Below are positions 7,024 through 57,968 of a stretch of 64,000 nt of DNA, piece after piece. A program made the position numbers and the translations under genes. The stretch spans positions 7,085 to 71,084 of the forward strand of contig JASGME010000002.1 in the NCBI GenBank assembly GCA_030156615.1. The letters run 5' to 3'. The notes under the pieces were generated by a model, which was not told the origin of the DNA, did not search any database, and saw nothing but the letters and a program-made list of their open reading frames with translations. Numbering within the stretch: position 1 is the first letter of the stretch; each line of letters opens with the position of its first letter. The stretch comes from Candidatus Woesearchaeota archaeon (GTDB taxonomy: Archaea > Nanobdellota > Nanobdellia > Woesearchaeales > UBA119).

Positions 7024-7833
7024 TTAGCCTTTTAGCTTGTTTGATTGTTTGCTTTTATGTAAAAAGAAATTAAAGATTAGAGCAAAGATTATCATTGAAA
7101 TAGAAAGCCATTGTCCCATAGACAGATTGAGCCAGAGCAGGCCTAATTGCTCATCCGGAGCTCTGAGGAATTCAACAAAAAAGCGGAGAATTCCATATAG
7201 CAACACGAAGAGGATGAAAAGAGAACCTTTCCTTCTTTCAACATCATGTATATATTTCTTTTTGTAATATGCAAAGAGTATGAAAAATATCAGTAGATTT
7301 TTTCCTGCTTCATAAAACTGTGAAGGATGTCTTGGGAGCATTAAAGGATCTGTTGTAAATCTTATTGCCCAAGGCACCATTGTAACTCTGCCGTATAATT
7401 CTCCATTTAAGAAGTTGCCAACACGACCAAGTGCAAGTGCCAAAGATGCTGGTATTACAATTAAATCAGCAACCTCTAAAAAAGGAATAGATTTATGTCT
7501 GCAATATAGATATACAAAAAGAACTGCACCAACAAGTCCTCCATGAAACGATAGCCCTCCATTCCAGATGGCAAAAATTTGCATTGGATTTGAAATATAA
7601 TAAGGCAGGTTATAGAACAGGATGTAAAAGATGCGGGCAAATATCAGGCCACCTACTAAACCCCAAAATAGGAGCTCTAAAGCATCTTCTTTTTTTCCTA
7701 GACCTCTCTTTTGATAGAAATGGCTGAATATGAAATAAACTATTAAAAAACCAAGAACATAGAAAAGACCATAATATCTTATTTCAAAACCAAAGAAAGA
7801 GAATAGAACTGGCTGAGGATCATAAGTTATCAT
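7024..7833 (-). CDS. lgt: Prolipoprotein diacylglyceryl transferase (Lgt) homolog
   Basis: Block-by-block match to bacterial Lgt: 'YGLFYVLGF', 'WGLVGGLIFARIFYILFYN', Lgt signature 'WNGGLSFHGGLVGA', 'GRVGNFLNGELYGR', 'LPRHPSQFYEA', 'RFFVEFLRAPDEQ', 'LSMGQWLSISM'. Confidence 0.85.
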   Translation of the reverse strand: MITYDPQPVLFSFFGFEIRYYGLFYVLGFLIVYFIFSHFYQKRGLGKKEDALELLFWGLVGGLIFARIFYILFYNLPYYISNPMQIFAIWNGGLSFHGGLVGAVLFVYLYCRHKSIPFLEVADLIVIPASLALALGRVGNFLNGELYGRVTMVPWAIRFTTDPLMLPRHPSQFYEAGKNLLIFFILFAYYKKKYIHDVERRKGSLFILFVLLYGILRFFVEFLRAPDEQLGLLWLNLSMGQWLSISMIIFALIFNFFLHKSKQSNKLKG

Positions 7834-12863: not shown

Positions 12864-14030
12864 TCAGACTTGATCAGCATCAATATTATACCTCAGAAAA
12901 GCAGCAACCTTCCCTAAATTAACTAATTGAACACCTTCGCTAGTTTCATCAGAAATCATCTCTATGTTTGTTGAGAATTCCTGTGCTTTTTTTTCAAATT
13001 TATCAATTGTTTCATCATCAAGTTCCTCTGAAAGGAGCAACGTTTCTACGGCCCCTCGTTCCAATAAAGAATAAACCTCGTTTATCCCATAAGAAACGGC
13101 CTCCGGATGTTTTGCAAGTGCCTCAAAGAATGTTCTAAGCAATTTCTTTTCTTTCGCAACTTGTTCCTCTGAAAGAACATCTTCACTTTTCTCCAAAAGT
13201 TCTTCCAAGCCATAATCTCCTGTATATCCTACATCCTTGACTGCAATGATTTTGTTTTTTATATACTCAGGCAATATATTACCTTCAACGAATTCATTCT
13301 TTGTATGCCCAGGTCCTCCGATTATGATTCCTTTGAGAGCTGGATCGCTGAAATATTCTTTCATATGCTCGGCAACCCTTTTGAAGAACTCTTTGGTTGC
13401 CCCCTCCCTAAGCCTTTGAAATCTTAACGCAGACTGCCCGCCAGCTCTTGTCTTTCCAGGGACATTTGATGTTGTCTTTGTTAAAGGAATTATTCTTTTC
13501 CCTTTGAGCTGGGCAATATCAGCTTCTCTTTTATCTAAAACAACGAGTCCAAAAACATCATCTGTTTCAAGCATCTCTTTTAAAGGATCTAACACAAAAT
13601 CCTTGTCGCATCTATAGATTCTTACGTTTAGGGGGATTGGCGGCTCGATGCTCCAAACCTTAACATCAATCTGACCTTCCCTTTCAGCAACATTCCCTGC
13701 AAAGACCGCCAGTCCATTTGGAGGCGTAGCTTTGAAAAGCTTCAAATGCTGTATCATCCTTTCAAGTGAAGCAATGACATTCTTCTGCGTTTGTTTTGAT
13801 TTTATGTTTGTAGCAGTTCCCTGCTCATCAAGAAGATGATTGATTATCTTATTCATGTCATAGTCTTTTGGGATATAAACGCTGACTAGCTCAGTATGCC
13901 TTCCCTTATAACCTTCTAACTCTTCAATGAATTTCCTGAGCTTCCTCTTCTGCATTGCTGAAATTTCCATAATTTTTAGAGCAAGATAGAAGTTTATAAA
14001 AGTTTTCCAATGTTCAACTTTATTTAACAA
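12864..14030 (-). CDS. prf1: Archaeal peptide chain release factor aRF1
   Basis: 'TATNIKSKQT' (NIKS stop-codon recognition motif) and 'AGGQSALRFQRLR' (GGQ peptidyl-hydrolase motif). True start may lie slightly upstream. Confidence 0.9.
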   Translation of the reverse strand: MLNKVEHWKTFINFYLALKIMEISAMQKRKLRKFIEELEGYKGRHTELVSVYIPKDYDMNKIINHLLDEQGTATNIKSKQTQKNVIASLERMIQHLKLFKATPPNGLAVFAGNVAEREGQIDVKVWSIEPPIPLNVRIYRCDKDFVLDPLKEMLETDDVFGLVVLDKREADIAQLKGKRIIPLTKTTSNVPGKTRAGGQSALRFQRLREGATKEFFKRVAEHMKEYFSDPALKGIIIGGPGHTKNEFVEGNILPEYIKNKIIAVKDVGYTGDYGLEELLEKSEDVLSEEQVAKEKKLLRTFFEALAKHPEAVSYGINEVYSLLERGAVETLLLSEELDDETIDKFEKKAQEFSTNIEMISDETSEGVQLVNLGKVAAFLRYNIDADQV

Positions 14031-14042: not shown

Positions 14043-16064
14043 TCATTGATTTATCTTTTTGTAGATTTCATTTAACTCAGGGAAAATCTTCTTTCTCTCT
14101 GACAATGGTAATGAGTCATATATATTAAGCATATTGATATACATCTTCTTTGCCTTTGCAATATCTGAAGCGGTAAGATGTGGTTTAGATAAAAGATTAT
14201 TGCAATCATCAACAAGACTTCTTAGATATACCATCTGCTTTGATTCCTTTACAAAAACACTCTTGAGCTTTTTCCTTCCTTGTATTTCCTTGCCAGCTAC
14301 CTTAAAAGGAACATGCCTTCTTATGTGGAGGTTTAGGCTTAATCTCTCAAATAAGCCCTGCATAAAGAATACAAGAGAAGCCAGTATCAACAAAAACAAA
14401 GTCATATATCCTAATTCAGATGAGATTGTAGAAAATGTTGATTTAAACAAAATCATATCCCGATACGTATTGTATGTTAATACAAAAGGACTGAATTCCG
14501 TTACCTTTCTTATATTTTGAGGCATAGACTCCAAAGGGATTAATGTGCCTGAGAGAAGCAAGAGAATCAATCCAACTACAAGGGCAGCCATAAGACTTGT
14601 CTCTTCGCTCCTGAATAGATTAGCAATGATAATTCCAAGAAGGATAAAGAATGATGATGAAAGAGCAGAGATTAGCAAGATGAAATGTAAATTTGAGAAT
14701 ATTGCTGTTTTGAACACCAATGCAGTGATTGAAAGAATTATCATTATTTGAATTAAAACCAACAGCAATGTAACTAGGAATGTTCCTAATGAGAATACAG
14801 TCTTATTAGATGGTATGATGAGATTGCGGAAATGTGCCTTTGAATTTCTTTCCATCTGTACAAGGGTTGAAGAAAGAAGAAGACTTACGAACATAACGAT
14901 TAAAACCAAGAGATTAGGGAATAAATATGATAGATGAGTTTCATTAACTAAAACAGGAGACACAGTGGTTTTGATTGGTTGCGATATTAATTCAGAATCT
15001 TTAATTTCAATATCAGCGATCATATCCTCTATTGCATTAATCCCTGCCTGTATCTCCATTATCTTGCTTAATTGATTTACAAGTGTCTGCTTCATTGCCT
15101 GGGTTTGTGAAATTAACTTGTTCCTTGCCTCATTCATTGATGATATCTCAGATGCTAGGGATTCCAATTGATTTTCAATACTACTAACATAAGAAGATAA
15201 CGATGCAATATTTGATTGCACTAATTCAAAAGAATCTTCATTTGATATGTTTGAGGCAAGTTCCTTCGCTGAATCTATTGCTGAGTATAAAGCGCTTTTA
15301 TACGATTCGTTAATATTCAAAGAGGATGCTTCTGATTCAATCTCTTCTAGAGATGACATTAAATCTGATACTGAATCATCTATGATCTCGCCATATTGAG
15401 AGAAAGATCTTGAAGCTGATGAGATTGCCGATGATAACTCTAAAACCTTAAAATCAGAGATGTCGAAATCCACTGTCATTCCCTGAGAAGAAGAAATAAT
15501 TGAGTTTGTTGTCGTTATTAATTCATCATTTTGGGTTGTCAAAGCAATAATAGATTTTTTTCTTATTGTTAATTCATCATTTATATCTTCAAAGACATCT
15601 AAAAGTTTCTGTGATAAGGATTGGGATAGCTCTGTTGTCCTGTTTGATATCTTCTTGAATATCGCATCCTGAATAAGACCTGCAAGATTAAGTTGAGAAT
15701 TATCTATGTAAATGTCTATGCTTGAATTAGAATCTGCCTCTACTCTTAGATCCGGAGAAAAAATAATACAGGCATGATGAGTTCCTGATCTTACTGCTTG
15801 AATACATTCTTCTTGAGAAGAAAGCTTGAAAACCCTATATGCATTATCTGATAGAGCATCTATGTAAGATTCAGTTAATTCAGAATATTCATCAGAATAA
15901 ACAGCAAGTTTTATATTATGATAACCAGATGTGTCAAAAGCAAGCCCTACCATAAACACAATCAAAAGAGGGCCTATTATAACTATTAGAGAAGAGAATC
16001 TTGAACGAATCAATGTGAGGAATTCCTTTTTTATTACTTCTCTAAGCTTTCCCAAGTTTAACAC
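14043..16064 (-). CDS. ABC-2 family permease with YhgE/Pip-type extracellular coiled-coil insert
   Basis: N-terminal TM, about 350-aa Ser/Glu/Ile-rich coiled-coil ectodomain, five C-terminal TMs, cytoplasmic C-extension. Directly downstream of the ABC ATPase. Confidence 0.75.
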   Translation of the reverse strand: MLNLGKLREVIKKEFLTLIRSRFSSLIVIIGPLLIVFMVGLAFDTSGYHNIKLAVYSDEYSELTESYIDALSDNAYRVFKLSSQEECIQAVRSGTHHACIIFSPDLRVEADSNSSIDIYIDNSQLNLAGLIQDAIFKKISNRTTELSQSLSQKLLDVFEDINDELTIRKKSIIALTTQNDELITTTNSIISSSQGMTVDFDISDFKVLELSSAISSASRSFSQYGEIIDDSVSDLMSSLEEIESEASSLNINESYKSALYSAIDSAKELASNISNEDSFELVQSNIASLSSYVSSIENQLESLASEISSMNEARNKLISQTQAMKQTLVNQLSKIMEIQAGINAIEDMIADIEIKDSELISQPIKTTVSPVLVNETHLSYLFPNLLVLIVMFVSLLLSSTLVQMERNSKAHFRNLIIPSNKTVFSLGTFLVTLLLVLIQIMIILSITALVFKTAIFSNLHFILLISALSSSFFILLGIIIANLFRSEETSLMAALVVGLILLLLSGTLIPLESMPQNIRKVTEFSPFVLTYNTYRDMILFKSTFSTISSELGYMTLFLLILASLVFFMQGLFERLSLNLHIRRHVPFKVAGKEIQGRKKLKSVFVKESKQMVYLRSLVDDCNNLLSKPHLTASDIAKAKKMYINMLNIYDSLPLSERKKIFPELNEIYKKINQ

Positions 16065-18043: not shown

Positions 18044-18634
18044 ATGAAAGGGATGAAAGAATTGAAAATTTATTTGTTCAGGCATGGAAGGACATATTAT
18101 AATGAAAAAGGAATTTTTACTGGATGGAAAGATTCTAAACTAACTCCAAAGGGAATTGAAAATGCTAAAGAAATTGCTAAAAAATTAAAAGATAAAAAAT
18201 TTCAGGTTGCAATACATACTTCTCTTTCACGTTCTAAGGATACTTTAAAAGAAGTTCTTAAGTATCATCCTGAATGTAAAAAGATAATTCAGGATGACAG
18301 GATTATTGAGAGAAGTTATGGCTTTTTGGAAGGAAAAACACATAAGAAGATTATTGAGCAGTATGGAAAAGAAAAATATGACAAATGGCACAGGGCTTGG
18401 GATTATCCTCCAAAAGACGGAGAATCACTTAAGATGGTTGAAAAAAGAGTGAAAAAATTTATTTCATGGTTAAAAAAGTATATGAAAGAAAATAAGGTAA
18501 ATGTTGCTATTTCAGCTCATGGAAATTCAATAAGAGTTTTCAGAAAGATTATGGAAAATTTAACCATAGAAGAAACATGTTCATTAGAAATTCCTTATGA
18601 CAAATATTTTGAATACACTATAAAAGTTGATTAA
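18044..18634 (+). CDS. Histidine phosphatase superfamily protein (phosphoglycerate-mutase-like)
   Basis: 'LFRHGRTYYNEKGIFTGW' RHG catalytic motif and 'SAHGNSIR' second His block. Confidence 0.75.
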   Translation: MKGMKELKIYLFRHGRTYYNEKGIFTGWKDSKLTPKGIENAKEIAKKLKDKKFQVAIHTSLSRSKDTLKEVLKYHPECKKIIQDDRIIERSYGFLEGKTHKKIIEQYGKEKYDKWHRAWDYPPKDGESLKMVEKRVKKFISWLKKYMKENKVNVAISAHGNSIRVFRKIMENLTIEETCSLEIPYDKYFEYTIKVD

Positions 18635-19397
18635 GAAAATGAAAACACTAACAATACTCTCGGGAAAAGGAGGAGCAGGAAAGACAACCCTGTCTTCTAA
18701 TTTAGCAGTTCTCCTTTCAAATGAAAAGAAGATTGTTGCAGCGGATTGCGATGCTGATGCTCCAAATCTTAGTTTAGCATTAGGCATAAAGGAGAATGAT
18801 TTTTCTAAATGGGAAAGAGTTCAGACAAATGAAAAAGCTGTTCTTGATGAGGAAAAATGTGATGGATGTAAGAAATGCTTTTAGGTTTGTAATTTTGGGG
18901 CTATTTCTTGGGATGAAAAAAGGAACAGGCCAATATTTAATTCAATGTTATGTGAAGGATGTGGTGCTTGTCAGTTAGTCTGTCCTAAAAAAGCAATTAA
19001 ATTAGTTAAGGTTTACAATGGTAAGATTTGGGAAGCAGACACGAGATATGGTTTTCCCTTGTTTTCTGGTCAATTAAAGGTAGGTGCTACTGGCTCAGGG
19101 AAGATTTTCTCTTTAATAAAAGAGAAGGCTGAAGAGAGAGCTTTGAAGACTGCTGATCATTTTAGGATTCCTTACGGCATAGTCATTAACAAGTTTGATT
19201 TGAACATCGATTTTTCAAAAAAGATTGAGAGATTTGCAAAAAACAAAGGCATAGATATTCTTGGAAGGATTCCGTATAATAAGAAGATTGTAGAAGCTCT
19301 TGTTGAGCTAAAACCAGCAATTGAATACGACAAAACCCTTGAACCTATATTCAATGAAATTCTAAGCAATATTTTAAAAAAGCTTGAAGAGATATAA
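18627..19397 (+). pseudogene. MinD/Mrp-like P-loop ATPase with 2x[4Fe-4S] ferredoxin insert (MJ0578-like), interrupted by an in-frame TAG
   Basis: ORFs 18627..18884 and 18945..19397 are in the same frame and are separated only by TAG at 18882-18884. Reading through gives 'CDGCKKCF*VCNFGAISWDE...CEGCGACQLVCPKKAI', two intact CxxCxxCxxxC(P) clusters. The N-terminus is 'SGKGGAGKTT', the deviant Walker A of the family. Confidence 0.7.
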
Positions 19398-19510: not shown

Positions 19511-19894
19511 ATGATAATAACTAAAAAGAGACCTTATAATGGGATAAAGAAGGAGTTATCTAAAAAAGATAAGATTGGGGTAATATCGTGCAATGCCTGT
19601 GCAAGAATGTGCAAAACAGGAGGCAGAGAAGCCCTTGAAGAGCTTGCCGGGAAACTAAAGAATGATGGATTTGAAGTCGTTGATATGGACCTCATAGGAA
19701 CACCATGCAATATTGATATGCTTCAGAAGAATCAATTGCATGGGAATGCTCAAGTGGCTCTCTGCTGTGATGCAGGCATAGAAAATCTAAAACAGATTTT
19801 TCCAAAGAACAAGATAATTCCTGCTTTGAAGACGATTGGATTAGGGGCATATAATAACAAAGGGAAAATATGGCTTATCAGAGAATTCAAATAA
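19511..19894 (+). CDS. Small Cys-containing hypothetical protein (CxxC...C...CC)
   Basis: 127 aa: 'GVISCNACARMCKTGG', 'GTPCNIDML', 'ALCCDAGIENL'. Possibly a metal/Fe-S-binding partner of the upstream module. No family recognised. Confidence 0.5.
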   Translation: MIITKKRPYNGIKKELSKKDKIGVISCNACARMCKTGGREALEELAGKLKNDGFEVVDMDLIGTPCNIDMLQKNQLHGNAQVALCCDAGIENLKQIFPKNKIIPALKTIGLGAYNNKGKIWLIREFK

Positions 19895-20285: not shown

Positions 20286-21260
20286 ATGGTAGAAGAGTTT
20301 AAGAGTGAGATTTGGATTGAGAAATATAGACCTAAAAGCTTTGATGATGTTAAGGGACAAGAACACATAGTTGAAAAATTGAGAGGCTTTGTTGATAAAA
20401 AAAACATGCCACATCTTCTTTTTGCAGGACCTGCTGGTGTTGGTAAGACTACATTAGCTGTTGTTACGGCAAAAACATTGTTTAAGGAGAACTGGCGAAG
20501 CAACTTTATGGAGTTAAACGCTTCTGATGAGAGGGGCATAGATGTTATAAGAAATAAGGTAAAGGACTTTGCAAGAACAAGAGCTATAGGCGATTTGCCT
20601 TTTAAGATAATATACCTTGATGAAAGCGATGCTCTTACAAGGGATGCTCAACAGGCTTTAAGACGAATAATGGAGAATTATACAAGGACATGCAGGTTTA
20701 TTCTTGCGTGCAATTATTCCAGCATGATTATAGATCCTATACAATCAAGGTGCGCTCTTTTCAGATTCAGGCCTTTATCTAAAGAAAATATTTTTGAAAT
20801 AATTGAAAAGATAGCTAAAGCAGAATCTATTGTTGTAACAGATGATGCAAAAGAGGCACTATATAAGGTTTCTCAGGGAGATTGCAGAAAACTTGAAAAT
20901 ATAATGCAGGCATGCAATGCAATATCAAATAAGATAGGTGAGAATCTTGTTTATTCAATAAGTTCTACTGCAAGGCCAGAAGAAATCAAGAAGATAATTT
21001 CATTGGCCATGAATAACAGATTTATTGAAGCAAGAGACCTCCTTATAGATACTATGCTTCAATACGGCCTCTCAGGTATAGATATTGTGAAACAGATTCA
21101 GAGTGAGGCTGTAAATATGGATGGCATAGAAGATAAAGAAAGACTTGAAGTTATAAGATATTGTGGAGAGGTTGAATTCAGACTTGTAGAAGGCTCTGAT
21201 CCTGTAATTCAGTTAGAAGCCCTCTTAGCCAAGATAGCGACTATTAATCAAAACAAATAG
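20286..21260 (+). CDS. rfcS: Replication factor C small subunit
   Basis: 'IEKYRPKSFDDVKGQEHIV', Walker A 'GPAGVGKTT', 'IIYLDESDALT' (DEAD-like), 'SRCALFRF' sensor motif. 324 aa. Confidence 0.9.
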   Translation: MVEEFKSEIWIEKYRPKSFDDVKGQEHIVEKLRGFVDKKNMPHLLFAGPAGVGKTTLAVVTAKTLFKENWRSNFMELNASDERGIDVIRNKVKDFARTRAIGDLPFKIIYLDESDALTRDAQQALRRIMENYTRTCRFILACNYSSMIIDPIQSRCALFRFRPLSKENIFEIIEKIAKAESIVVTDDAKEALYKVSQGDCRKLENIMQACNAISNKIGENLVYSISSTARPEEIKKIISLAMNNRFIEARDLLIDTMLQYGLSGIDIVKQIQSEAVNMDGIEDKERLEVIRYCGEVEFRLVEGSDPVIQLEALLAKIATINQNK

Positions 21261-21287: not shown

Positions 21288-22253
21288 TCAGTCAAAACCT
21301 GAACTTGAACGGACTTCCAGCTGAGTTGATGTAGTATCAGAGTAATCATATTCAACCGTTATTGGAAGAACTTTCACATAATCACCTGCTGCTGAATCAG
21401 CTACCTCAATATTACATCTTACTGATACTAATCCGCCAGAGATTATTCTGGTTGCAAATGATTGACCTGCAGGAACACCATTACATTCTATATTGACTGA
21501 ATCCCATCCCCAATTCACAGGATCTCCTACTGTAACTCTCACCACTCCTTTTGAAGAAAACGAAGATGAGTCACAATCTTCTCCGAGTTTATATATTCCT
21601 CCATTTCCTACATGCTTAATTTCTATTGAAAGAGAATATCTGTTATCTCCTAAAGCCTTCTGAGTTACAGACGATATTTGAACAGGAGCTCCTGAGGAAT
21701 ATACTGGCCTTGCGCCGTTTGGATTACAAACTCTTGTATCGGTAGGATTCTCTGCTATGCAAATAACAGATTCTGCATTTGTTTCATAAGGATAACAAAT
21801 GTCAGCATAGATAGGCATATTCAATCTGGTGTTTATTGATGGAACATATTTAAGTGGGCCAAAAGAGACATCCGCTATATCTCCTGACACGACTTGATTA
21901 TCTATCTTATCTTTTCCTGAGAGTCCGGTATCAATAACCTTGCGCAGATCACTCTCCATTATACCAAAATCTCTATAAGAAAAGCCCGATAAAGAAACAA
22001 CTGCTGAATTCGGAGGGATATCATATTCCCCAAGATTTTCTACCCTCAAAGAAACGAAAATCTCGTTATTTCCTTGATCATATAAAACATAGCCTTCTTC
22101 AGGGATAATCCAGTTCATCACTAAGCCAGAAGTACCACCTATAAAACCGCTCTTGCTTCCTTCCTCGCCAGTTGGTTGAGTGCCGCATCCAGTTAATAGC
22201 ACTAATAGAACAAAAAGAATCCCTAGCCTATAGTATGATTTCATTATTTCCAC
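21288..22253 (-). CDS. Secreted putative lipoprotein (paralog family 1 of 3)
   Basis: Signal peptide ending in lipobox 'LLTGC'. Shares a C-terminal region with 23105..24028 and 24080..25045 ('...GAPVQISSV' / 'GQGAPVEFREV' / 'GQGAPINVVSV'). Confidence 0.6.
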   Translation of the reverse strand: MEIMKSYYRLGILFVLLVLLTGCGTQPTGEEGSKSGFIGGTSGLVMNWIIPEEGYVLYDQGNNEIFVSLRVENLGEYDIPPNSAVVSLSGFSYRDFGIMESDLRKVIDTGLSGKDKIDNQVVSGDIADVSFGPLKYVPSINTRLNMPIYADICYPYETNAESVICIAENPTDTRVCNPNGARPVYSSGAPVQISSVTQKALGDNRYSLSIEIKHVGNGGIYKLGEDCDSSSFSSKGVVRVTVGDPVNWGWDSVNIECNGVPAGQSFATRIISGGLVSVRCNIEVADSAAGDYVKVLPITVEYDYSDTTSTQLEVRSSSGFD

Positions 22254-22362: not shown

Positions 22363-22965
22363 TTATTTCTTTATCTTTTCATTTTTCTTCGAAGAATGTG
22401 CCAAATGTTTTAACTCCCCAATAGAAAAGTCCTTTAGTTTAAAGCTTTCATCTAAATCAAAATAGCTTATTGCACAAAAACCTGTCTTAAAATGAACATT
22501 TTCTTCTTCAGGCAAGCTTAAGAAAAGCATTATCAAATCAGAAATAAATCCTGCATGAGAAACGATTAACAAATTCTTTGCATTTTCTTTTTTTAACTTC
22601 TCACAAAATATTTTTGCTCTTTCATAAGCATCTTCTCTATTTTCCCCTCCTTCTGGTCTAAATTCATCTTTAGATAAGCCTGAATTTTCAATAGCTTCCT
22701 TAAATTCTCTATCAGATTTCCCTTCAAATATCCCTAACTCTTGTTCGTTAACATCTTGTGTATATTCTACAGAACATTCTTGATATCTTAATATTGGCTT
22801 TAATGTTTCTTTAGTCCTGTTCTTATATCCGCAAATTATTTTATCCAACTTTATTGTTTTAAAAAAATCTGCGGTTCTTCTCGCCTGCTCTTTTCCAATC
22901 TCAGTTAAACTATCCTGCTTTTCACAATGTCCTCTTTGACTATGCCTTAATAGATAAATTTTCAT
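22363..22965 (-). CDS. Histidine phosphatase superfamily protein
   Basis: 'IYLLRHSQRGH' RH(S/G) motif and 'VSHAGFI' second His block. Confidence 0.7.
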   Translation of the reverse strand: MKIYLLRHSQRGHCEKQDSLTEIGKEQARRTADFFKTIKLDKIICGYKNRTKETLKPILRYQECSVEYTQDVNEQELGIFEGKSDREFKEAIENSGLSKDEFRPEGGENREDAYERAKIFCEKLKKENAKNLLIVSHAGFISDLIMLFLSLPEEENVHFKTGFCAISYFDLDESFKLKDFSIGELKHLAHSSKKNEKIKK

Positions 22966-29700: not shown

Positions 29701-30948
29701 TCAAAGCCCCTTCCTCTTGGTTTTCTTTTGAATTATGAAGAATAGTATTAATCCTATCACCACGATTAGCAATGTGAATATGATAGTAATAATATCGAAA
29801 TCTGTGGTTTTCCTATCATAAGAAGATTTATTATCCACGACATTTAAAATAGAGCCCTTCTCAAATGTAATCTTATCATTATAGTAAACTCTGCCCTTTA
29901 TTTTATATTGACCCTCTTGAGTTGGAGTAAAATACATCTCCAAAGGAATGACTTCTCCTGGACCAACCTCTATTTCTTCTGAATGTAGAATTTCTACTAT
30001 TTCCTCTCCTCGTGAAATGATTCCTTTATAATACGCATTAACCGTCCTGCTACCTTTATTCTTAAACTTCGCCTGAATAGGAACTATCTCATTCACAGAG
30101 GCCCATGGTTCATTCTCAATCCTAATAAGTTCACCATCATCCTTTATCTCCCCTTGATACAATACATCAAAAGTAATTATGTCACCTAAGTTACATTCTT
30201 CAGTTCTAATCCTAGCCCAATATTGTCCCGTTTCTAGATCAACATCAAATTTGGCAGAAATAGACTCGGATGCAGTCGGCAATATATCAAAAGGAGGAGT
30301 GTACTCCAAGTGTTCTACTTTAATGTCTTGTTGTTGATTTAATATTTCTATAATGAATGTTGGTCTTACCCTTACATTGCCTTTATTAATAACATTTGCA
30401 TAGAATACAAGGGGCTCATTCACCTCTGAACTCTGAATAGAGAATCCGCCGGCATCACAACTAAAAATCTGAGTATCATTTATATTTACATTTATTGTAA
30501 TTTCAAAGGCGGCCATAACATTTGCTCCCATCCTTTCAGTTATATTCCCAAGGTTACCTGTTGAAACTAAAACTTTTCCTTTATAATTCCCTACCGCAGC
30601 ATCCAGAGGAGGTTCTACTATTACCTTTATTTCTTTAGGAGAATCTTCATTAACCAAGACTGTCTGATTTGATGGCTCAAACCTAATCCAATCAGCAATT
30701 TCTCCTCTTGCTTCATAGGAAACCGCAACAGGTTTTTCAGTGCCAATAGAAACCTTAAAGGTATTTTCCGCATAACCACCTCTTAGCACATTATTGAAAG
30801 ATATTTCAGCTCTATTAACCCCAAGAAGAGCTGCTTCTGAGAAATTGCTATTGAATGGAAGGATCAATAAAAAAAGTGTTACTAACGCAAAAAGAAACTT
30901 GTTAGATATTTTCATGAACATTACCTCCCAAAATGAATAAGTCCTCAA
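29701..30948 (-). CDS. Cell-surface protein (signal peptide, beta-rich ectodomain, C-terminal TM anchor)
   Basis: Signal 'LFLLILPFNSNFSEA|A', C-terminal 'IITIIFTLLIVVIGLILFFIIQKKTKRKGL'. First gene of duplicated cassette A. Confidence 0.6.
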   Translation of the reverse strand: MRTYSFWEVMFMKISNKFLFALVTLFLLILPFNSNFSEAALLGVNRAEISFNNVLRGGYAENTFKVSIGTEKPVAVSYEARGEIADWIRFEPSNQTVLVNEDSPKEIKVIVEPPLDAAVGNYKGKVLVSTGNLGNITERMGANVMAAFEITINVNINDTQIFSCDAGGFSIQSSEVNEPLVFYANVINKGNVRVRPTFIIEILNQQQDIKVEHLEYTPPFDILPTASESISAKFDVDLETGQYWARIRTEECNLGDIITFDVLYQGEIKDDGELIRIENEPWASVNEIVPIQAKFKNKGSRTVNAYYKGIISRGEEIVEILHSEEIEVGPGEVIPLEMYFTPTQEGQYKIKGRVYYNDKITFEKGSILNVVDNKSSYDRKTTDFDIITIIFTLLIVVIGLILFFIIQKKTKRKGL

Positions 30949-30982
30949 AATAGTTATAATATACTTAAAACTTTTTATTTAA

Positions 30983-31885
30983 TCAAGGAGCAGTTGCTGT
31001 GAACCTTATTATTCCAGTACATCCCCCAAAAGGATTTGGAGGGACATATAACTGCCAATATGTGTTTTGAGTGATAGGATTATCTTCCGATGTTGGCTTT
31101 TGGATGGTGAATCCCATATCTTGAGATGTAGAAGCTAAAGGAATTTTGCTGTCCCATGCAACAAGAGATGATGAGAAACGCTGGTTTTCAACTGATATGT
31201 TCGAGCCCTGCTCGCAGACAAGACCAATTCCATCTCCCTCAACTTCTCCATAACCAAGAACACTAACGTTTATATACATATTGCCAAGGTTTGTTAATGT
31301 TGCAGTTATATTATCGCTAATATCGGTAACACTTAGTTCTCCATAATCAATTACATCTGTAACATTTAAAGCATAGAGAGCGTTTATACTTCCGTTCTCT
31401 GCTAATGAATCTTCATAACTTAGAGTATCGTTTACAGACACATTACAAGTCCAAGTTCCATTTTTAGCAAAGTATCGAACATCAAAAGTGCAGGTATAAT
31501 TAGCAAGGTATTGTCCATCATTACTAATTTCCACACATGTTGAGTCGGTGTAATGTTCATCTTCATCATCCGGATCAGACGATTTATTTAGGTAATAGTA
31601 TAAGGTAGCATTCACATTATCAATGTCATTGAAGCCGTTCCAATCCCTAATAGTTGCATTGCATGTAACTGTTTTGTACCCTCCAGCAGAGAGAACTACG
31701 GAATCCTCTGGCCTTACCTCTAAAACCTCTGGCCCGGCATTTGTAACATTTACTTTAGAAGTAACATTTACATGCTCATAGTTGTAAGCCAAAGAGGACG
31801 GAATTTCTAAGAAAGTTAAAACAAAGCTTAAGAGGAATATACCTAACAATGTTCTTCTCGTTTCCTTTTCAATTAATAGCTCCAT
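30983..31885 (-). CDS. Secreted protein, family A (~300 aa, conserved '...IRFTATAP' C-terminus)
   Basis: Sec-type signal peptide, many N-x-S/T sequons. About 65% identical to 43256..44152 over the full length ('YVNVTSKVNVT', 'TCNATIRDWNGFNDI', 'GDGIGLVCE', 'YWQLYVPPNPFG'). Confidence 0.65.
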   Translation of the reverse strand: MELLIEKETRRTLLGIFLLSFVLTFLEIPSSLAYNYEHVNVTSKVNVTNAGPEVLEVRPEDSVVLSAGGYKTVTCNATIRDWNGFNDIDNVNATLYYYLNKSSDPDDEDEHYTDSTCVEISNDGQYLANYTCTFDVRYFAKNGTWTCNVSVNDTLSYEDSLAENGSINALYALNVTDVIDYGELSVTDISDNITATLTNLGNMYINVSVLGYGEVEGDGIGLVCEQGSNISVENQRFSSSLVAWDSKIPLASTSQDMGFTIQKPTSEDNPITQNTYWQLYVPPNPFGGCTGIIRFTATAP

Positions 31886-31957
31886 TTTAACACCCTCTAC
31901 TATTTTCCACTTGTAAATTCTACTCTTATAAAAAAATAAAAAAATGTATGTCTCGAA

Positions 31958-32689
31958 TTACTCTATCTGGACATAAAAGTAATATGGAGTCGTTGCTTCA
32001 TCTGTTCCTTTTTCTCCAACCAATAGCTCGAAATGCCAAGGCAGATTGTTGAAGCCTGATATTGCAGAATCTTCAATGATTGTTGAATAAACTGTGTTAA
32101 CGCCATCACTCAAAAGTATCTGCCAGAATTCATCCGCTCCTTGTCCACCAGATGAATCATATGCCTTTGTTGAATAGCATCCTGCGATATTGGTTGAACC
32201 AATAATAAAGCTTGGATGACTAGTCAATGTGAAGGTGTTAGATACACTGTCTGGATCTGTTGAAGTCTGACCCAAAAAAGTCTCTTCCTGACTTACATGA
32301 GTATCGTTTGAGCAGTTTATTGTTGTCCAAGTTACTCCATTGCTTCTGCTAGCAAACACCTGTCCCGAAGGAACAGTTAGATTCCAATTATAAAAGTTGT
32401 TGCCAGATGCATCCGCTAATATTATCTCTCCAGTAACATTTCCGTAGAAACCCTGCCAATATTTTGTAACAGCTGTAGCATTCAAGGAAAGCTCTGTAAC
32501 ATTTCCTGCCACTGCATCCACCTGCTTCGGCGAGATTGCTGATGTGTCGTATCTCTCAGAGTTCTTTACCGTCGCGCTATCCACACCATATGGCTCATCC
32601 GCGGCAAATGCATTCCCAAAAGAAAATACAAAAAACAGGGATAACATTATGCCCAAAGTCGTCTTTCTCATCATAAATCTAAATTCCAT
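31958..32689 (-). CDS. Secreted protein, family B (~245 aa, 'W(Q/K)GY.GNVTG...L.DASG..(Y/F).W' core, 'YYF..(E/Q)I' C-terminus)
   Basis: Signal peptide 'GNAFA|ADEP'. Paralogous to 33609..34337, 44182..44961 and 45034..45795. Confidence 0.65.
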   Translation of the reverse strand: MEFRFMMRKTTLGIMLSLFFVFSFGNAFAADEPYGVDSATVKNSERYDTSAISPKQVDAVAGNVTELSLNATAVTKYWQGFYGNVTGEIILADASGNNFYNWNLTVPSGQVFASRSNGVTWTTINCSNDTHVSQEETFLGQTSTDPDSVSNTFTLTSHPSFIIGSTNIAGCYSTKAYDSSGGQGADEFWQILLSDGVNTVYSTIIEDSAISGFNNLPWHFELLVGEKGTDEATTPYYFYVQIE

Positions 32690-32737
32690 TCTTTATACAC
32701 CCCCTACTTTAATTTAAAAAAGCCAATTCCAATTCTA

Positions 32738-33361
32738 TTAGCTTTTCTCACCCCCTCTAAACTTAAGAGGATCGTAAATTGCATATAGCGAAGAAATTTT
32801 CTTCTTTGCTTCATTTTTTTTTAGTTCGGAAAACTCTATTTTCTTCTTTATCCCATGGAATGTCTTTATGATATCCGAAGGCAGTTCCTTCAATGTTTCA
32901 TTCTTAGGCAAAACAACAATTGAGATTTCGTTAGATGAAGAATTCTTATCATAATATATGCCAGAAATATCATCCAAGAAAGGAAGAAGTGCATTCAAAG
33001 CTTCTTCCATAAAAAACTGGGTTATTTCATCGTCATAAAGCCATATTCTCAGAATAGATTTCTTTCTAGGATCTAATTCAAGCAACTTCTTTTCAGCAAA
33101 TTCTTTAGTAACAACGACAAGATAAGCAAAATCCTTCTGCAATGAATATACTACTCTGGGCTGTCCCTTATCCCTATTAGGTATTCTCTTGCTTTTAACA
33201 AGCCCAGCAATCTCAAGCAAACGAAGAGCCTGACTTATGTTGGACATTGAAGTAGAACTTTTTGATGAAAGCTCGATTGGAGACATATCGGATTGTGAAA
33301 GCTCTTTGAGTACATCCCATTTAACTGAAGTAAAAAGCACTCCTTGTTCCATCATTACCAC
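32738..33361 (-). CDS. Winged-HTH transcriptional regulator embedded in cassette A
   Basis: 'MSNISQALRLLEIAGLVKSKRIPNRDKGQPRVVYSL' HTH-wing pattern. About 200 aa. Confidence 0.55.
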   Translation of the reverse strand: MVMMEQGVLFTSVKWDVLKELSQSDMSPIELSSKSSTSMSNISQALRLLEIAGLVKSKRIPNRDKGQPRVVYSLQKDFAYLVVVTKEFAEKKLLELDPRKKSILRIWLYDDEITQFFMEEALNALLPFLDDISGIYYDKNSSSNEISIVVLPKNETLKELPSDIIKTFHGIKKKIEFSELKKNEAKKKISSLYAIYDPLKFRGGEKS

Positions 33362-33608
33362 ATTGAGGTTCTTTTGGGTTACCAGTATGGTTTATAGTAT
33401 CCCCGTTACCTTCTGAGTGCAACTCTTATTTAAATATTTCTGTTTTACAGAACCACAATAAAAAGAGAATTTTTAGACTATTGAGCTTAAAGTATCATTA
33501 TAATAACACTAAAAAAGAATTTCAGTAAATAGACAAAATCAGTAATTCAATAAATATTGAATTTGAAGAGATAGAGCATCTCGTATCAAAAAATGAAGAA
33601 AAATAGAA

Positions 33609-34337
33609 TTAAGAGATCTCTGCAAAGAAATAATATGTATTGTCTATATTAGTATCAGGGTTATCTGGCACAATCAATTGAAAATCGTAGGCTTTGTCAT
33701 CAAAGCCAGAAACAGAGGATTCTATAATTGTTGCATAAACTACATTCTGATTGTTATCTTCTAAAAGGATCTCCTGAAAGTTTGCATCTTCTGAAGATGA
33801 TTGTGCTTGGCTACTTATGTATGTAGCGATTGCCCTGCATGAACTTGGTTCTATTTTTTTAGTGCCTACAAAAAAACTCTTATGAACGGTTTCATTAAAT
33901 GTCTTGTTTATATTATCTGAGTTATCAGAGGAAATATTAAGAGCTGCCTGCTCTGCAAGAATAGTAGCATCGCTCAAACATTTTATCTCACTCCAACTGA
34001 TTGATGGGGAACGGGAAACATATACCTCTCCTGCTACTGAAACAAGATTCCAATCATAAATTGTGCTTCCTGATGCATCATCTAATGTTAATTTACCTGT
34101 TACATTTCCTACATAAGCTTTCCATCTAGGGGTTTGAAATGAACCATTCAACACCATTGTTGTGAAGCTTCCACCAGGAGTTGTGATAGAAGATGCTTCT
34201 GATTTTGGAGCTTCTTCAGTCACATTAGAAGAAAAACCTATTCCTTCAGGTTGTGCGAGGACAGAATAAGGAAATAATAAGAAAAACATTGCTAATATAC
34301 TAAACAAACCTATCAAAAAAACCTTTCCTCTTATCAC
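33609..34337 (-). CDS. Secreted protein, family B paralog
   Basis: Signal 'FPYSVLA|QPEG', 'WKAYVGNVTGKLTLDDASGSTIYDWNL', C-terminal 'YYFFAEIS'. Confidence 0.65.
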   Translation of the reverse strand: MIRGKVFLIGLFSILAMFFLLFPYSVLAQPEGIGFSSNVTEEAPKSEASSITTPGGSFTTMVLNGSFQTPRWKAYVGNVTGKLTLDDASGSTIYDWNLVSVAGEVYVSRSPSISWSEIKCLSDATILAEQAALNISSDNSDNINKTFNETVHKSFFVGTKKIEPSSCRAIATYISSQAQSSSEDANFQEILLEDNNQNVVYATIIESSVSGFDDKAYDFQLIVPDNPDTNIDNTYYFFAEIS

Positions 34338-34498
34338 TCTTTGCCTCCACCAAAAGATATAAAAATCAATTTAGAGTGAATCCGGATTCAACCCCTAAAC
34401 TTACAACCTCCCATTAATCTTAAATCAGAACAGATAAATAAATCTTTTGAATTTTTAAATAAACATAAAATAACAAGGAAAAAAGAAGAGTACTTTGA

Positions 34499-35104
34499 TT
34501 ATTTTTGAAATATGAAAAGCTGGCCAATTGAGGTCTTAGAAGCACTATATTCTGTTCCATTCCTTGCATAACTGACAGAAAACAGAAGTATCTTTTCTAC
34601 TCCCTTTTCCATTTGGCTAGGACAATTAAATACCTGAGAATTCATGACATCAAGTGAGATATTTGTTGGTTTACAGTATTCCTCACCTAATTTGACATTT
34701 ACATAATCCAAAGGAAAATCATAGCGATTTGTAAGTTCAAGAGCAACAGAATTTTCGGACATATTTGATAGAGAACAATAGAAACCAATTACGCTGCAAC
34801 TTCCATGTCTTGCATACAACTCTTCAACAGGAGTCAAAAAATAATGTATCTTTTCGTATATCAGATATGAAAAAAGACATAAAACAAAGATAGATATGAA
34901 AAGAGCAACCCATACCTGTTTCTTTAAGGAGGTAGTGAGTGATTCTCTCTGATGCAACATAGAGATTGCTAAAACAATGCCTATTGGAGGGAAAATAAAG
35001 GCAAAAAGGTACATAAGTCTTACCTTCTTATCTAATAATCTTCTTTTCTTATTATAATGTTTCTTAGATTCAGCCATCTTAGCACCATTTGTTATAATTG
35101 ACAA
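34499..35104 (-). CDS. Hypothetical membrane protein (2 TM plus extracytoplasmic Cys-containing domain)
   Basis: Basic N-terminus, two TM helices, C-terminal domain containing 4 Cys. Confidence 0.5.
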   Translation of the reverse strand: MSIITNGAKMAESKKHYNKKRRLLDKKVRLMYLFAFIFPPIGIVLAISMLHQRESLTTSLKKQVWVALFISIFVLCLFSYLIYEKIHYFLTPVEELYARHGSCSVIGFYCSLSNMSENSVALELTNRYDFPLDYVNVKLGEEYCKPTNISLDVMNSQVFNCPSQMEKGVEKILLFSVSYARNGTEYSASKTSIGQLFIFQK

Positions 35105-35149
35105 AATCCATTCCTTATATATAACTATTTTGGAAATCTATTCTCTATT

Positions 35150-36850
35150 TTAAGTCTTAGTTTGTTTCTTTTTGTTCTTAAGACTTTTGGAATCATCAAT
35201 GGACATATTTATTTCATTTTCTGATTCTTTCTTTGCTTCTTCTAATTCTTCATATAAGTCCAGTTTGGAATTGTATGCCTGAGAGATTACCTTAAGGTTT
35301 GAAAGTAACTTTGAAAGCTCTGGATATTTCTCTGCACTAATCTGAACATCTTTATTATACTCAAGTTGATTTATATCATCAAGAAGTTCCTTCTCCAAAG
35401 ACTTTTGAGTCATCTCAGATTTATAAAGAACATATAACTTCTGAAGTTTTGTATATATGTCCATCAGAGCAGGTGTTGTTCTCATAAGCTCTGCAAACTC
35501 AGGCTTTTCCTCTAACTCTTTTATAGTCTCCATAATTTCCTTCTCAGTTTTCATAAGATGATGATCAACTATGCGGATCATGTTTTCTATGGCTTTTTCA
35601 TGCGTTGATGAGAGCCCCCTAATATTCTGTTTTTTTCTCTGTTCATTATACCCAAAGAGCCAAATGAAAAATGTCATCAGGATAGGGAAAAGCATTACTG
35701 ATAAAAGCAAATACCAGATGTACCCGAAGAAGCGATCTGGACAAGAAATAAAGAAATAGAAGTAGAGATAAGTTACAAATGCGATTCCGAATGCATTTAG
35801 CAAGAAGAGTCTATTCTTTCTTTTAAGGGAAGCAATCTCCCTTAGCTTTTCAAGCTCTTCTCCTTCTTCTTGATTTCTTATTTCTAAGAAAAGTTTTCTA
35901 ATCTTTCTTTTATTAAAAAGCACAAAAGAAGCAATAAAGGTAAAGAGTATTACGAAGAATAGAATAGAAGGCAAACTAAAAATATCCATTCGCAGCTCAC
36001 AGAAATCTATTGAACTCCTAGAAAAGATTCTTCTAGGCTCCTCTTCAACAACAGTTTTATTCCCTTCTTCAGTCTCATTCACAGGAGGCTGATAAACACA
36101 ATCTTCAATCTCTGGAGGTTTTGATTTGTTTGTACCACATTCATTCAAGTCAATGCATTCTCTTTTCCTTATGCCTTCAGGCAGGCAGGGACCCCAATCA
36201 GAACAAATCCAGTTCTCAACGCATTCTTCTTCCTCCTCCTTGACAAAAGTCGGGCCTTCTAATTCACCACCTTTTGTTGAACTTCCTTCTAAAGAACCTT
36301 CGGGTCTTTCTCCTCCAGAGGGTACTTTCTCCAACCCTTCTGCTTCTCCAGGAACAAATTGACAAGGACCGCAATCCTCTGGACAATTATTACAATTCTC
36401 TACCCTAATATCACAAAATCCATCACCGCAAACAGCAGGCGGAGCAGTTAAATCTACTCGCTGAAAGGCTCCCTCAGACCAAATTACATCTACTGTCAGA
36501 TTATTTATTGAGGCAGACGCCGGATATGTTCCTATCTTGAAACGAATTTTCTCTCCTGAAGAGGGACCAGTATTGTCATTTAGTAGCATAGCACCCTTAC
36601 AGGTAAGAACACCATAATGACCTTCATTAACTATTTCAAATGTTCCGCAGATATTTCCATCAGCATCTAAAGCAGTTATTTTGGTTCCAACCTGAGCCGG
36701 TTCGTTAAAAAGAAAAGCATCACCATAAAGCTCCATAGGCAAAGGAGGATGGATTGCATAAGAAGAAAAAGAAGTCAAAGGGATTAAAAACAAAAGCCCA
36801 ACTAGGAAAAAGAACATATTCTCCTTCCTTTTGGCTATTTTTGTTTTCAT
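35150..36850 (-). CDS. Cys-rich surface protein with TM and cytoplasmic coiled-coil tail
   Basis: Signal peptide; compact Cys modules 'CGDGFCDIRVENCNNCPEDCGPC' and 'CVENWICSDWGPCLPEGIRKRECIDLNEC'; TM 'ILFFVILFTFIASFVLF', a second hydrophobic pair, then a K/E-rich coiled coil. Confidence 0.6.
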   Translation of the reverse strand: MKTKIAKRKENMFFFLVGLLFLIPLTSFSSYAIHPPLPMELYGDAFLFNEPAQVGTKITALDADGNICGTFEIVNEGHYGVLTCKGAMLLNDNTGPSSGEKIRFKIGTYPASASINNLTVDVIWSEGAFQRVDLTAPPAVCGDGFCDIRVENCNNCPEDCGPCQFVPGEAEGLEKVPSGGERPEGSLEGSSTKGGELEGPTFVKEEEEECVENWICSDWGPCLPEGIRKRECIDLNECGTNKSKPPEIEDCVYQPPVNETEEGNKTVVEEEPRRIFSRSSIDFCELRMDIFSLPSILFFVILFTFIASFVLFNKRKIRKLFLEIRNQEEGEELEKLREIASLKRKNRLFLLNAFGIAFVTYLYFYFFISCPDRFFGYIWYLLLSVMLFPILMTFFIWLFGYNEQRKKQNIRGLSSTHEKAIENMIRIVDHHLMKTEKEIMETIKELEEKPEFAELMRTTPALMDIYTKLQKLYVLYKSEMTQKSLEKELLDDINQLEYNKDVQISAEKYPELSKLLSNLKVISQAYNSKLDLYEELEEAKKESENEINMSIDDSKSLKNKKKQTKT

Positions 36851-37576
36851 TTACCAGTCCACAACAAGTTCAACATCTTTTGTAAGGTTTATCCAATAGG
36901 CTTCTCCTGGCTCCATTGTTGAAAGATTTCCTTCTTCTGTTAATGGATTATAGTACATCCAGTTTCCATTCCGATAGGTTTCGATAATTGTATAGTTTCC
37001 TTCAATAGAAGAAAGAACTTCAGATATGTTTTTTTGAATGCCAATTGGATAACTCAGAAGGTTCCAACCTTTATTGAGACTCATTCGAGTAACCTTGAAA
37101 TGATAACCTTGATTAAAGAATGTTTGATTTTCTTCCATAATAATAATGTAACCATGTTTCCTATCAATCTCACCAAGAGCCTGAATTGTCCAGTTAGGTA
37201 GAACTGGATTGTAACTATGCCAAGGATCATCTGCTTCATCAGAAACATAAGAATAAATTGCTAAATAATTCAGGGATTCATTGTTGATGTCTCTAAGAGT
37301 TGAGTTTAACTGAGATCCATCGGGGATACAATAAAAACTTACAAGATTAATACCTTCTTTAAGATTAATTGAACAATTGTATGGCTTGGTTTCGTATATG
37401 AATGCTCTGGCAGTAATAAAGCCAGTTATGGATGAATGAATTTGCTCTTTAAAGACAAAATAAAAGAATGAGAGGGTCAATACAATCAAAATTAACATAG
37501 TCAAGGTTATCTTAAGACGCATTTTAAGCACACCTACATTTCTTATTGAATAACAGAGAAGGGATAATTTAAACAT
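36851..37576 (-). CDS. Secreted/anchored hypothetical protein
   Basis: N-terminal TM/signal 'ITLTMLILIVLTLSFFYFVF', beta-rich sequon-rich body. Abuts the upstream gene with no spacer. Confidence 0.55.
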   Translation of the reverse strand: MFKLSLLCYSIRNVGVLKMRLKITLTMLILIVLTLSFFYFVFKEQIHSSITGFITARAFIYETKPYNCSINLKEGINLVSFYCIPDGSQLNSTLRDINNESLNYLAIYSYVSDEADDPWHSYNPVLPNWTIQALGEIDRKHGYIIIMEENQTFFNQGYHFKVTRMSLNKGWNLLSYPIGIQKNISEVLSSIEGNYTIIETYRNGNWMYYNPLTEEGNLSTMEPGEAYWINLTKDVELVVDW

Positions 37577-37715
37577 TTCGTTTGTTCTTGAACAAGAAAA
37601 TCATAAAAATCCTGGCTAATATCACATCAGCGTTGGTATGAATTTCAGGAAACAGGAATTTGTATAAGTAAGAATGCGCTAGATTTAAAACAAAAATTGT
37701 GAATTTGTGCCTAAG

Positions 37716-39488
37716 TTATCTCAAAGGTTGCTTGCATTTCTTGCATGTTTTTCTTAAAATCGGATTTTTATATCCACAATTCTTGCATTTTTTCTTTGGC
37801 AAGATCAATAAAAGCAGGATAACAATAAGAGCTATCAGAACATATACTGCAAAGTCAGGAGAAGAGTACTTAAATTCAAACACAGAGATAATACTCTTGA
37901 TTAAAGCAGTTTCCCTTTGACCATAGAGAACCCTGACATTTATTTTTTCATTGTTTGCTATATCTTCTTCAGCAAGTTCAACAGGAACAAATATTTCTCC
38001 AGATTTGCCTTTTTCAATGGAAATAGTCTTCTCTGAGCCATATACTCCATACTGCGTATTTACATATAAATCAAATATCTCAGCTGCAGCATACGCATCA
38101 ACTTCTCCTATATTCTTAACTTTTATATAGAAGCCCTTATCTCTTTTAGAATAAACTACTTCAAGAAGTTCAATAGATGCCTCATCCATAACATTCACTT
38201 TCTCAACAACAAGTGTCTTTTCCAGAGTTTGCTCTAAAGATTTTGCAGATTCTCCATAGATAATGCTTATATCAAGGGTAATATTATCAGAGCCCTGGAA
38301 AGGTATGTCATTTCCTTCAGCATCTTTCAAATCAAAGACTGTGGTTTTAAATGAATTACCATCAATAAAAGTCGGATCTGAGTCATCAGGGATAACATAG
38401 GATTCTTCATCAAGATTAAGCCTGATAAGGATATTCTGAAAATAGCTACCAATCTCAGCCAGATTATGATATGTAATTTCCAACTGAGCTGTGGCAGTAT
38501 TAATCGTAGCTGCGATAACATCAATATTTAAGTTATAAACAGGTAAGGGGAACCTATCTAAATCTTCTACACTTGCTACAGGACCTGTTGGAGCCCTTGC
38601 TCCCTGACCGAATTTGACAAAGACACTCAATCCAGTCTGACGCTTAACAAATGTCGCTGTTCCTATGAGTTCATTTCCAATCAAGGTCCCTACTTCAAAG
38701 GCACTTTTTTCAATATAATCTCTCACCTGTTGAGGAACATTTGAGTAACCAATAAACAGAACTGGGTCTACCCCTGTAAAAAAACTTGCTTCAATAAATT
38801 CGCCATTGGTAAGCAACACCTGTTTCCTCGGGCCACCTTTCAATTCCTCATGAAGCTCCTGATACATCTTTGTAATCTCTATATTATCGTCAAAGCGATC
38901 GCCAGTATTTATAATAATCGGATCATATTTGGCAAATCTCTCTCTTACAGTCCTATCTAATATTCCATATAAAATCATCTCTTCAACAGTTCTATCTGAA
39001 AGGGCAGCATCAACCCTTGGAAGATTGGTTTCATCAACGAACAATACATAATAATTACCAAGAACAGCAAAAGGTGCTACAGAGATTGCATTATATCCGT
39101 AAGATGGATCAATAATTATAAAACGGGTAATTTCTGGTAGTTCTTCTAATAAGTCAAGATTGAATTCGTTAGAACGAATCTCTACAACATTATCAAAACC
39201 ATCAGACATAAGAATACTTTGATAATTATTTACAAAAGGATTTCTTATAGAGCTATAAATCCTTATTTCTTCAACATCCCTCGGGATTTGATTAACCATT
39301 AATTTAGCATGACTTGTGCTTGTAAGAAAATTGGCATTATAACTTTTAAGACTACCGAATAACATTACTGAGTAGACATCTTTCCAATCAGCGGAGTTGG
39401 CTATCAGTCGAGGAGCAGCATACACACCAGGTAAAAATTGAAGGCCTAAAAGAAAGACAAAAATCAAAATCCATGCTCTTTTATTCAC
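37716..39488 (-). CDS. Surface protein with C-terminal TM followed by a cytoplasmic zinc-ribbon
   Basis: Signal 'LLGLQFLPGVYA|A', about 540-aa ectodomain, TM 'FAVYVLIALIVILLLLIL', then 'PKKKCKNCGYKNPILRKTCKKCKQPL' (CxxC...CxxC). Confidence 0.6.
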   Translation of the reverse strand: MNKRAWILIFVFLLGLQFLPGVYAAPRLIANSADWKDVYSVMLFGSLKSYNANFLTSTSHAKLMVNQIPRDVEEIRIYSSIRNPFVNNYQSILMSDGFDNVVEIRSNEFNLDLLEELPEITRFIIIDPSYGYNAISVAPFAVLGNYYVLFVDETNLPRVDAALSDRTVEEMILYGILDRTVRERFAKYDPIIINTGDRFDDNIEITKMYQELHEELKGGPRKQVLLTNGEFIEASFFTGVDPVLFIGYSNVPQQVRDYIEKSAFEVGTLIGNELIGTATFVKRQTGLSVFVKFGQGARAPTGPVASVEDLDRFPLPVYNLNIDVIAATINTATAQLEITYHNLAEIGSYFQNILIRLNLDEESYVIPDDSDPTFIDGNSFKTTVFDLKDAEGNDIPFQGSDNITLDISIIYGESAKSLEQTLEKTLVVEKVNVMDEASIELLEVVYSKRDKGFYIKVKNIGEVDAYAAAEIFDLYVNTQYGVYGSEKTISIEKGKSGEIFVPVELAEEDIANNEKINVRVLYGQRETALIKSIISVFEFKYSSPDFAVYVLIALIVILLLLILPKKKCKNCGYKNPILRKTCKKCKQPLR

Positions 39489-39658
39489 GATTTATCTCCC
39501 CCATTTTCTCTCAGAAATCATTTCTTTATTATTTAAAATTTTCGTTTTAATAAAAGGTGCTAGCAAAATAGAAAAATACTTTAATATAAAGAAATAGAAA
39601 TATTTAAATAGCAACAAAATATTGTTCTGTTAAAAGAAAGACCTCTCGTGTTACAAAG

Positions 39659-42989: not shown

Positions 42990-43042
42990 AACAGTTTTAT
43001 AATGTTATCTATATAGAAAGGTTGATAATGATAAATGCACAG

Positions 43043-57953: not shown

Positions 57954-57968
57954 AAATAAGGATTTCAG

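Follow-up and report, generated by a model that had tools for sequence, protein, structure and literature searches.

MinD/ParA ATPases of the COG1149 type, which combine a CbiA domain (PF01656) with Fer4 modules, are typically encoded by two adjacent paralogues that lie beside genes for DUF134 and Nitro_FeMo-Co proteins. A literature search on the COG1149 family returned nothing specific; a role related to Fe-S or cofactor metabolism is presumed from the domain architecture and the gene neighbours. The paired arrangement was also found in distant relatives of the locus described here. In these relatives a 282-284-aa paralogue that shares its architecture directly precedes the intact orthologue (296-301 aa), and the cluster further holds genes for DUF134, Nitro_FeMo-Co (NifX-like), small ferredoxins and a methyltransferase. 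For SIMIBI-class P-loop NTPases, the Walker B/switch II segment is indispensable for nucleotide hydrolysis.

The family member analyzed here is located on a 64-kb stretch of DNA (the window), and its features are listed in Table 1. It resembles the COG1149-type proteins in the P-loop GKGGAGKT, in the two CX2CX2CX3C motifs inserted after switch I and in a C-terminal half that is collinear with the homologues, with 57-92% identity over the aligned columns. Unlike these proteins, it carries a premature TAG, lacks the 47 residues of the Walker B/switch II region and has lost the adjacency to its paralogue. We are highly confident that this locus is a fixed, non-functional and progressively decaying pseudogene in a population of Candidatus Woesearchaeota (DPANN).

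Table 1. Features of the MinD-ferredoxin locus and of its direct neighbours (positions refer to the window).
Feature	Position	Strand	Remark
Histidine phosphatase (His_Phos_1), upstream neighbour	18044..18634	+	Synteny anchor, selection control
MinD/CbiA-family P-loop ATPase pseudogene with inserted 2x[4Fe-4S] ferredoxin domain	18639..19397	+	Pfam, homologues, alignments
Residual 81-aa ORF	18639..18884	+	Deposited as hypothetical protein MDK2907647.1 / MDI3543830.1
Deviant Walker A / P-loop SGKGGAGKTT, codons 8-17	18660..18689	+	Intact in the window copy
First CX2CX2CX3C motif (C74, C77, C80, C84)	18858..18890	+	Broken by stop at codon 82
Premature TAG, codon 82	18882..18884	+	GAG (Glu) in intact syntenic relative; TAG in all ten assembled contigs
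Residual 150-aa ORF	18945..19397	+	Hypothetical protein PWQ87_106 (MDK2907648.1), Candidatus Woesearchaeota
Second cluster motif CEGCGACQLVCP, codons 105-116	18951..18986	+	Intact
Deletion junction, hybrid repeat AGAGA|GCT|TTGAA	19135..19147	+	By comparison with intact relative
127-aa Cys-rich protein, no Pfam family, downstream neighbour	19511..19894	+	Synteny anchor

The identity of the gene was deduced from its read-through product. Translation of 18627-19397 in a single frame gave one internal stop only, and the product with an X at this stop was recognized by Pfam as CbiA (1.3e-19) as well as ParA, Fer4, Fer4_7 and Fer4_21. A protein search with the same product revealed 739 homologues (E = 2e-146 for the best, ranging to 1e-78), almost all of which are 291-323 aa long and which carry the JGI label "MinD superfamily P-loop ATPase". 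Since this homology is far beyond chance, the in-frame TAG within the first cluster motif is not a chance pattern. The first-pass annotation of this DNA had reported that TAG and proposed that reading through it yields CDGCKKCF-X-VCNFGAI followed by CEGCGACQLVCPKKAI, that is, two CX2CX2CX3C motifs in one frame; the sequence and the single-frame translation bear out both statements. The same annotation had placed the start at TTG 18627. This codon overlaps the end of the upstream gene, and all homologues begin with MKTLTIL..., so the true start is the ATG at 18639, 4 bases past the TAA of the upstream gene. With its own stop codon at 19395-19397 the pseudogene comprises 252 codons plus the stop, versus ~299 codons in the intact homologues.

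The N-terminal SGKGGAGKTT follows the Walker A pattern GKGGxGK[ST] and aligns to the P-loop of Pyrococcus MinD (1g3q). All eight cysteine codons of the two cluster motifs are retained, and the stop falls between C80 and C84, so that the first motif is interrupted. Instead of a single uninterrupted ORF of ~290-300 codons, the locus is split into an 81-aa and a 150-aa ORF. The latter begins at an internal Met inside the second Fe-S motif and possesses neither P-loop nor Walker B; no Pfam match was obtained for it by itself.

The letters at 18876-18890 read TGC TTT TAG GTT TGT. A single G-to-T change separates the TAG from the GAG of the closest intact relative. In the 15 aligned homologues this position is mostly occupied by E, D or K, with N and H occurring once each. 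The first-pass annotation had expected E, Q or K; of these, E and K were found and Q was absent, and D, which it had not named, is common. It had further suggested a very recent nonsense mutation. A nonsense mutation from GAG to TAG by one substitution is indeed what the comparison indicates. The words "very recent" do not hold in the sense of a private event, as the TAG is fixed in all ten contigs (the window plus nine others, from ten sequencing samples) of a population with roughly 98-99.8% identity. The gene is, moreover, otherwise damaged.

This further damage is a deletion. Compared with 15 full-length homologues (~299 aa), the window copy lacks 141 nt (47 codons) in frame at 19139/19140. 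In the alignment it shows one gap of 47 columns, in which residues are present in all 15 homologues and which takes in nearly invariant D, G, G, C, P, V, I, S, T, E and P columns. The missing stretch encodes the Walker B/switch II core. It aligns to FILIDCPAG...ALLVTNPE of Pyrococcus MinD 1g3q, a solved structure, in which this block forms the Walker B/switch II strand and the next strand; both the Walker B/switch II strand (hhhhDxxxG) and the following TEPTP strand of the family are deleted. As this segment is lost, the gene cannot be called "otherwise intact" and free of other decay, as had been stated at first. In the intact relative the additional 141 nt are flanked by AGAGAGCTCTGAA and AAAGGGCTTTGAA, two imperfect direct repeats of 13 nt which lie 141 nt apart and are identical at 10 of 13 positions. 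Both are kept in that relative, and the junction in the window is a hybrid of the two. Hybrid junctions of this kind are typically left by deletions between short direct repeats, and the 141 nt appear to have been lost by slippage or recombination between these 13-nt repeats.

Two short Logan contigs, L001 and L002, encode the closest intact homologue (P0001, 299 aa). Their flanking genes are those of the window, with the histidine phosphatase upstream and the 127-aa protein downstream, and at the DNA level they are ~93% identical to the window. Shared flanking genes and this degree of identity identify P0001 as the orthologue in a sister lineage. L001 and L002 have GAG at the stop site and contain the full 141 nt; measured against this intact syntenic orthologue, both changes in the window are disabling lesions. 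No intact allele closer than this ~93% relative was present among the homologues found. The locus is compact, and its retained residues are ~92% identical to those of the intact relative at the protein level, which indicates that the decay is young. Pairwise dN/dS versus the intact relative was 0.106 overall; the part before the TAG gave 0.066 and the part behind it 0.116. Such low values show that most of the divergence accumulated under constraint, before inactivation; by itself the pairwise 0.106 shows no relaxation, and the comparison within the population is more informative. The inactivation is therefore young compared with the divergence from the sister lineage, and it preceded the diversification of the present population.

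In order to follow the locus through the population, related loci were collected by exact-protein look-ups of the residual ORFs. Exact-pattern scans of genome and metagenome contigs with the 38-nt site (N at the first codon base) gave no match. The look-ups led to nine other contigs (L003-L011) from nine other sequencing samples, with NCBI, Logan and JGI as sources, which share 97.5-99.8% identity with the window over the locus. TAG at codon 82 was present in 9/9 of these contigs and the 141-nt deletion in 8/8 that reach the junction. The same split ORFs of 81 and 150 aa occur as exact copies in the NCBI metagenome-assembled genomes PWQ87 and PWQ28, both Candidatus Woesearchaeota archaeon, and were further found in several Logan assemblies from different SRA runs and in two JGI metagenomes. 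The population contigs vary among themselves at ~30 further sites within the gene. Because of these differences, the contigs represent independent sampling of a natural population and not copies of one assembly, and the lesions are reproduced in independent data by nine other assembled contigs. Some strains carry additional, private lesions. In L009 and L010 (JGI 3300005067 and 3300005882) codon 8, which belongs to the P-loop, has changed from TCG to TAG. Two further contigs are frameshifted, L011 through the loss of 2 bp at codon 6 and L005 through an extra base near 19058.

Polymorphism was counted in seven full-length copies. The MinD-ferredoxin pseudogene showed 16 nonsynonymous and 14 synonymous changes (pN/pS 0.30), plus one nonsense site and one codon with an indel. 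The corresponding nonsynonymous:synonymous counts were 1:4 for the His-phosphatase (pN/pS 0.06), 1:10 for the PRC-barrel gene (0.03) and 8:23 for the RFC small subunit (0.09). The ratio of 16:14 in the pseudogene differs from the pooled 10:37 of the three neighbours (Fisher p = 0.006). The private nonsense codon, the two frameshifts and the raised pN/pS show continuing decay and relaxed selection. The population value of 0.30 lies below the neutral value of ~1, which means that relaxation set in recently or is masked in part; some of the polymorphisms may be older than the inactivation or have been moved by recombination.

The polymorphism is distributed unevenly. The 5' 469 nt (18639-19107) contain 26 segregating sites, and the 199 nt at 19108-19306 contain none. 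Despite the absence of polymorphism within the population, the latter segment differs normally from the sister lineage. It could be read as residual constraint. By its position at the junction it might also be due to the deletion allele having spread recently, but the sample is too small to say. Because both lesions are fixed in every assembly of the population, across many samples, and polymorphism is lower at 19108-19306 than in the 5' part, a loss driven by selection was considered, with a sweep or recombinational spread of the deletion allele and adaptive inactivation of one partner. We regard this as rather unlikely, and the pattern is equally compatible with chance and a small sample. 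If it were true, the locus would represent the adaptive inactivation of one of two paired MinD-ferredoxin ATPases in a genome-reduced DPANN archaeon.

The 127-aa Cys-rich gene downstream (SCNACARMC..., CCDAG) is conserved at this place in the population and in the sister lineage. It showed 5 nonsynonymous versus 3 synonymous changes (pN/pS 0.42) and might be under relaxed constraint too.

The first-pass annotation had named recoding and a sequencing error besides a nonsense mutation, and had ranked recoding as the least likely of these. Decoding of the UAG as pyrrolysine or a different amino acid, or readthrough that yields a full-length protein, has indeed next to no probability. In its favour, the frame stays open with strong homology for 170 codons past the TAG, and the TAG is conserved throughout the population. 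Against it stands the ordinary use of TAG in the window. The 49 other non-overlapping long ORFs end in TAA (29), TGA (16) or TAG (4), and after the four TAG-ending ORFs the next in-frame stop follows at 23, 4, 8 and 1 codons. One of the four is RFC (20286-21260), which had already been cited as ending in a genuine TAG and is followed by TAA four codons on. A count of in-frame TAGs in other conserved genes, which had been proposed as a check, gave none in the window; the sole long read-through past a TAG is the pseudogene. A canonical aRF1 (TIGR03676, E = 2.4e-126) with NIKS, YxCxxxF and GGQ motifs is encoded at 12864-14030 (-). No tRNA and no Rfam match were detected within the 64-kb window, Pfam scans of 46 of its predicted ORFs found no Pyl-related gene, and a literature search found no report of Pyl in Woesearchaeota or DPANN. 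Furthermore, the site holds GAG in the sister lineage and E, D, K, N or H in other homologues, the read-through product would still be devoid of Walker B, some strains have extra stops and frameshifts in the same gene, and selection on the locus is relaxed. The low rank given to recoding thus holds, on account of TAG terminating elsewhere, the other lesions and the relaxed selection.

A sequencing or assembly error, with a real genome that has GAG and perhaps a full-length gene, is just as improbable. The TAG is a single base from GAG and the window stems from a metagenome-assembled genome, both of which would fit such an error. The identical TAG was however recovered in nine other contigs from nine samples and three data sources, every junction-spanning contig has the same deletion, the copies differ at the ~30 other sites, and no intact allele is on record in the population. 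This recurrence of TAG and deletion in independent assemblies excludes the error that had been kept as an option. Slightly more weight is due to a split or shortened gene of which the 81-aa P-loop fragment, the 150-aa C-terminal fragment (as a whole or in its ~110 invariant last residues) or both still work, e.g. as partner or regulator of the surviving paralogue, and this too we consider very improbable. Gene calls for the two ORFs recur in many assemblies, the last 113 residues hardly differ among ten variants, and 19108-19306 is free of polymorphism. The low diversity can equally stem from the deletion allele having spread recently. The N-terminal piece is destroyed in L009 and L010 by the stop and in L011 by the frameshift, and the C-terminal ORF is frameshifted in L005. 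Moreover, the 150-aa ORF starts within the second Fe-S motif without P-loop, Walker B or a Pfam match of its own, and the homologue search showed no full-length split homologues elsewhere. A decaying pseudogene remains by far the preferred explanation.

Two lesions of this pseudogene are thus common to the whole population, the GAG to TAG change at codon 82 and the 141-nt in-frame deletion of Walker B/switch II, and individual strains have added a second nonsense codon and two frameshifts. No functional product would be expected, since translation would end at the TAG and a read-through product would lack the core for nucleotide hydrolysis. Tolerance of the loss may be due to the persistence of the usual partner of the gene, an intact 281-aa paralogue retained by at least one strain, or to the pathway having become dispensable. 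This paralogue was found in L004, 1.5 kb upstream of the pseudogene, and possesses a P-loop, both Cys motifs and Walker B (ILYDTSPG). In the window no MinD-ferredoxin paralogue occurs elsewhere within the 64 kb, and the upstream region contains an HTH regulator and an ABC transporter in place of the paralogue.

A strain-level rearrangement breakpoint lies at the 5' end of the histidine-phosphatase gene, at 18044-18060 (compare L004 2100-2120, and L010). The window, L003, L006 and L011 have the HTH regulator and the ABC transporter upstream of the phosphatase. L004 has a Zip transporter and the 281-aa paralogue at this place, and its phosphatase comprises 193 aa with a different N-terminus. L010 shares the 193-aa form, and its contig is too short upstream to show the Zip and paralogue genes. 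Two His_Phos_1 paralogues are encoded within 5 kb in the window, at 22363-22965 (-) and at 18044-18634 (+).

Several other features of the window were recorded. Three further long "read-throughs" (14043 TGA, 31958 TAA, 36851 TAA) proved to be adjacent genes sharing a frame, none of them with TAG. The aRF1 gene lies in the same frame, 12 nt past the TGA of an ABC-2 permease ORF (14043-16064); its listed TTG start probably lies too far upstream, and MEISAMQKRK... looks like the real N-terminus. The ORF at 7024-7833 (-) on this archaeal contig strongly matches the bacterial-type prolipoprotein diacylglyceryl transferase Lgt (PF01790, E = 1.9e-75), and the 321-aa product of 21288-22253 (-) has a lipobox-like signal (...LVLLTGCG) at its N-terminus. 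Judged by these two sequences, a bacterial-style lipoprotein pathway could have been acquired by a DPANN archaeon. In the 16-kb block at 29701-45960, ~15 ORFs in a row gave no Pfam match at E<=1e-6. Most of these ORFs are on the minus strand, and proteins of 566, 590 and 1057 aa are among their products; they possibly encode lineage-specific surface proteins or belong to an integrated element. The open frame at 57960-64000 (+) has a signal/TM-like start and continues past the end of the window; it spans 2013 codons or more and probably encodes a giant surface protein.

The residual ORFs that are deposited as hypothetical proteins would be by-products of annotation. MDK2907647.1 and MDK2907648.1 together with their PWQ28 counterparts seed a small cluster of pseudogene fragments and ought to be annotated as a single pseudogene. 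Where TAG serves as a normal terminator elsewhere in the window, its occurrence in frame within the gene of an archaeal Fe-S protein does not constitute evidence of pyrrolysine or read-through. The locus offers a snapshot of gene decay in a DPANN population, with a nonsense mutation, a repeat-mediated deletion and private frameshifts, by mechanisms that are already known.

With pyrrolysine decoding, as it occurs in Methanosarcinales, Methanomassiliicoccales and some other archaea, the locus has only a superficial likeness, namely an in-frame UAG in a conserved archaeal gene. Unlike the Pyl systems, the window contains neither Pyl genes nor the tRNA, UAG is a normal terminator, the site is occupied by E, D, K, N or H in homologues, and the gene carries other lethal lesions. 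Close counterparts are bacterial and archaeal pseudogenes that arose by a nonsense mutation plus a deletion between short direct repeats. The locus shares with them the one-base nonsense change, the deletion between imperfect 13-nt repeats with a hybrid junction, the independent extra lesions in sister strains and the raised nonsynonymous fraction, and it shows no essential difference from them.
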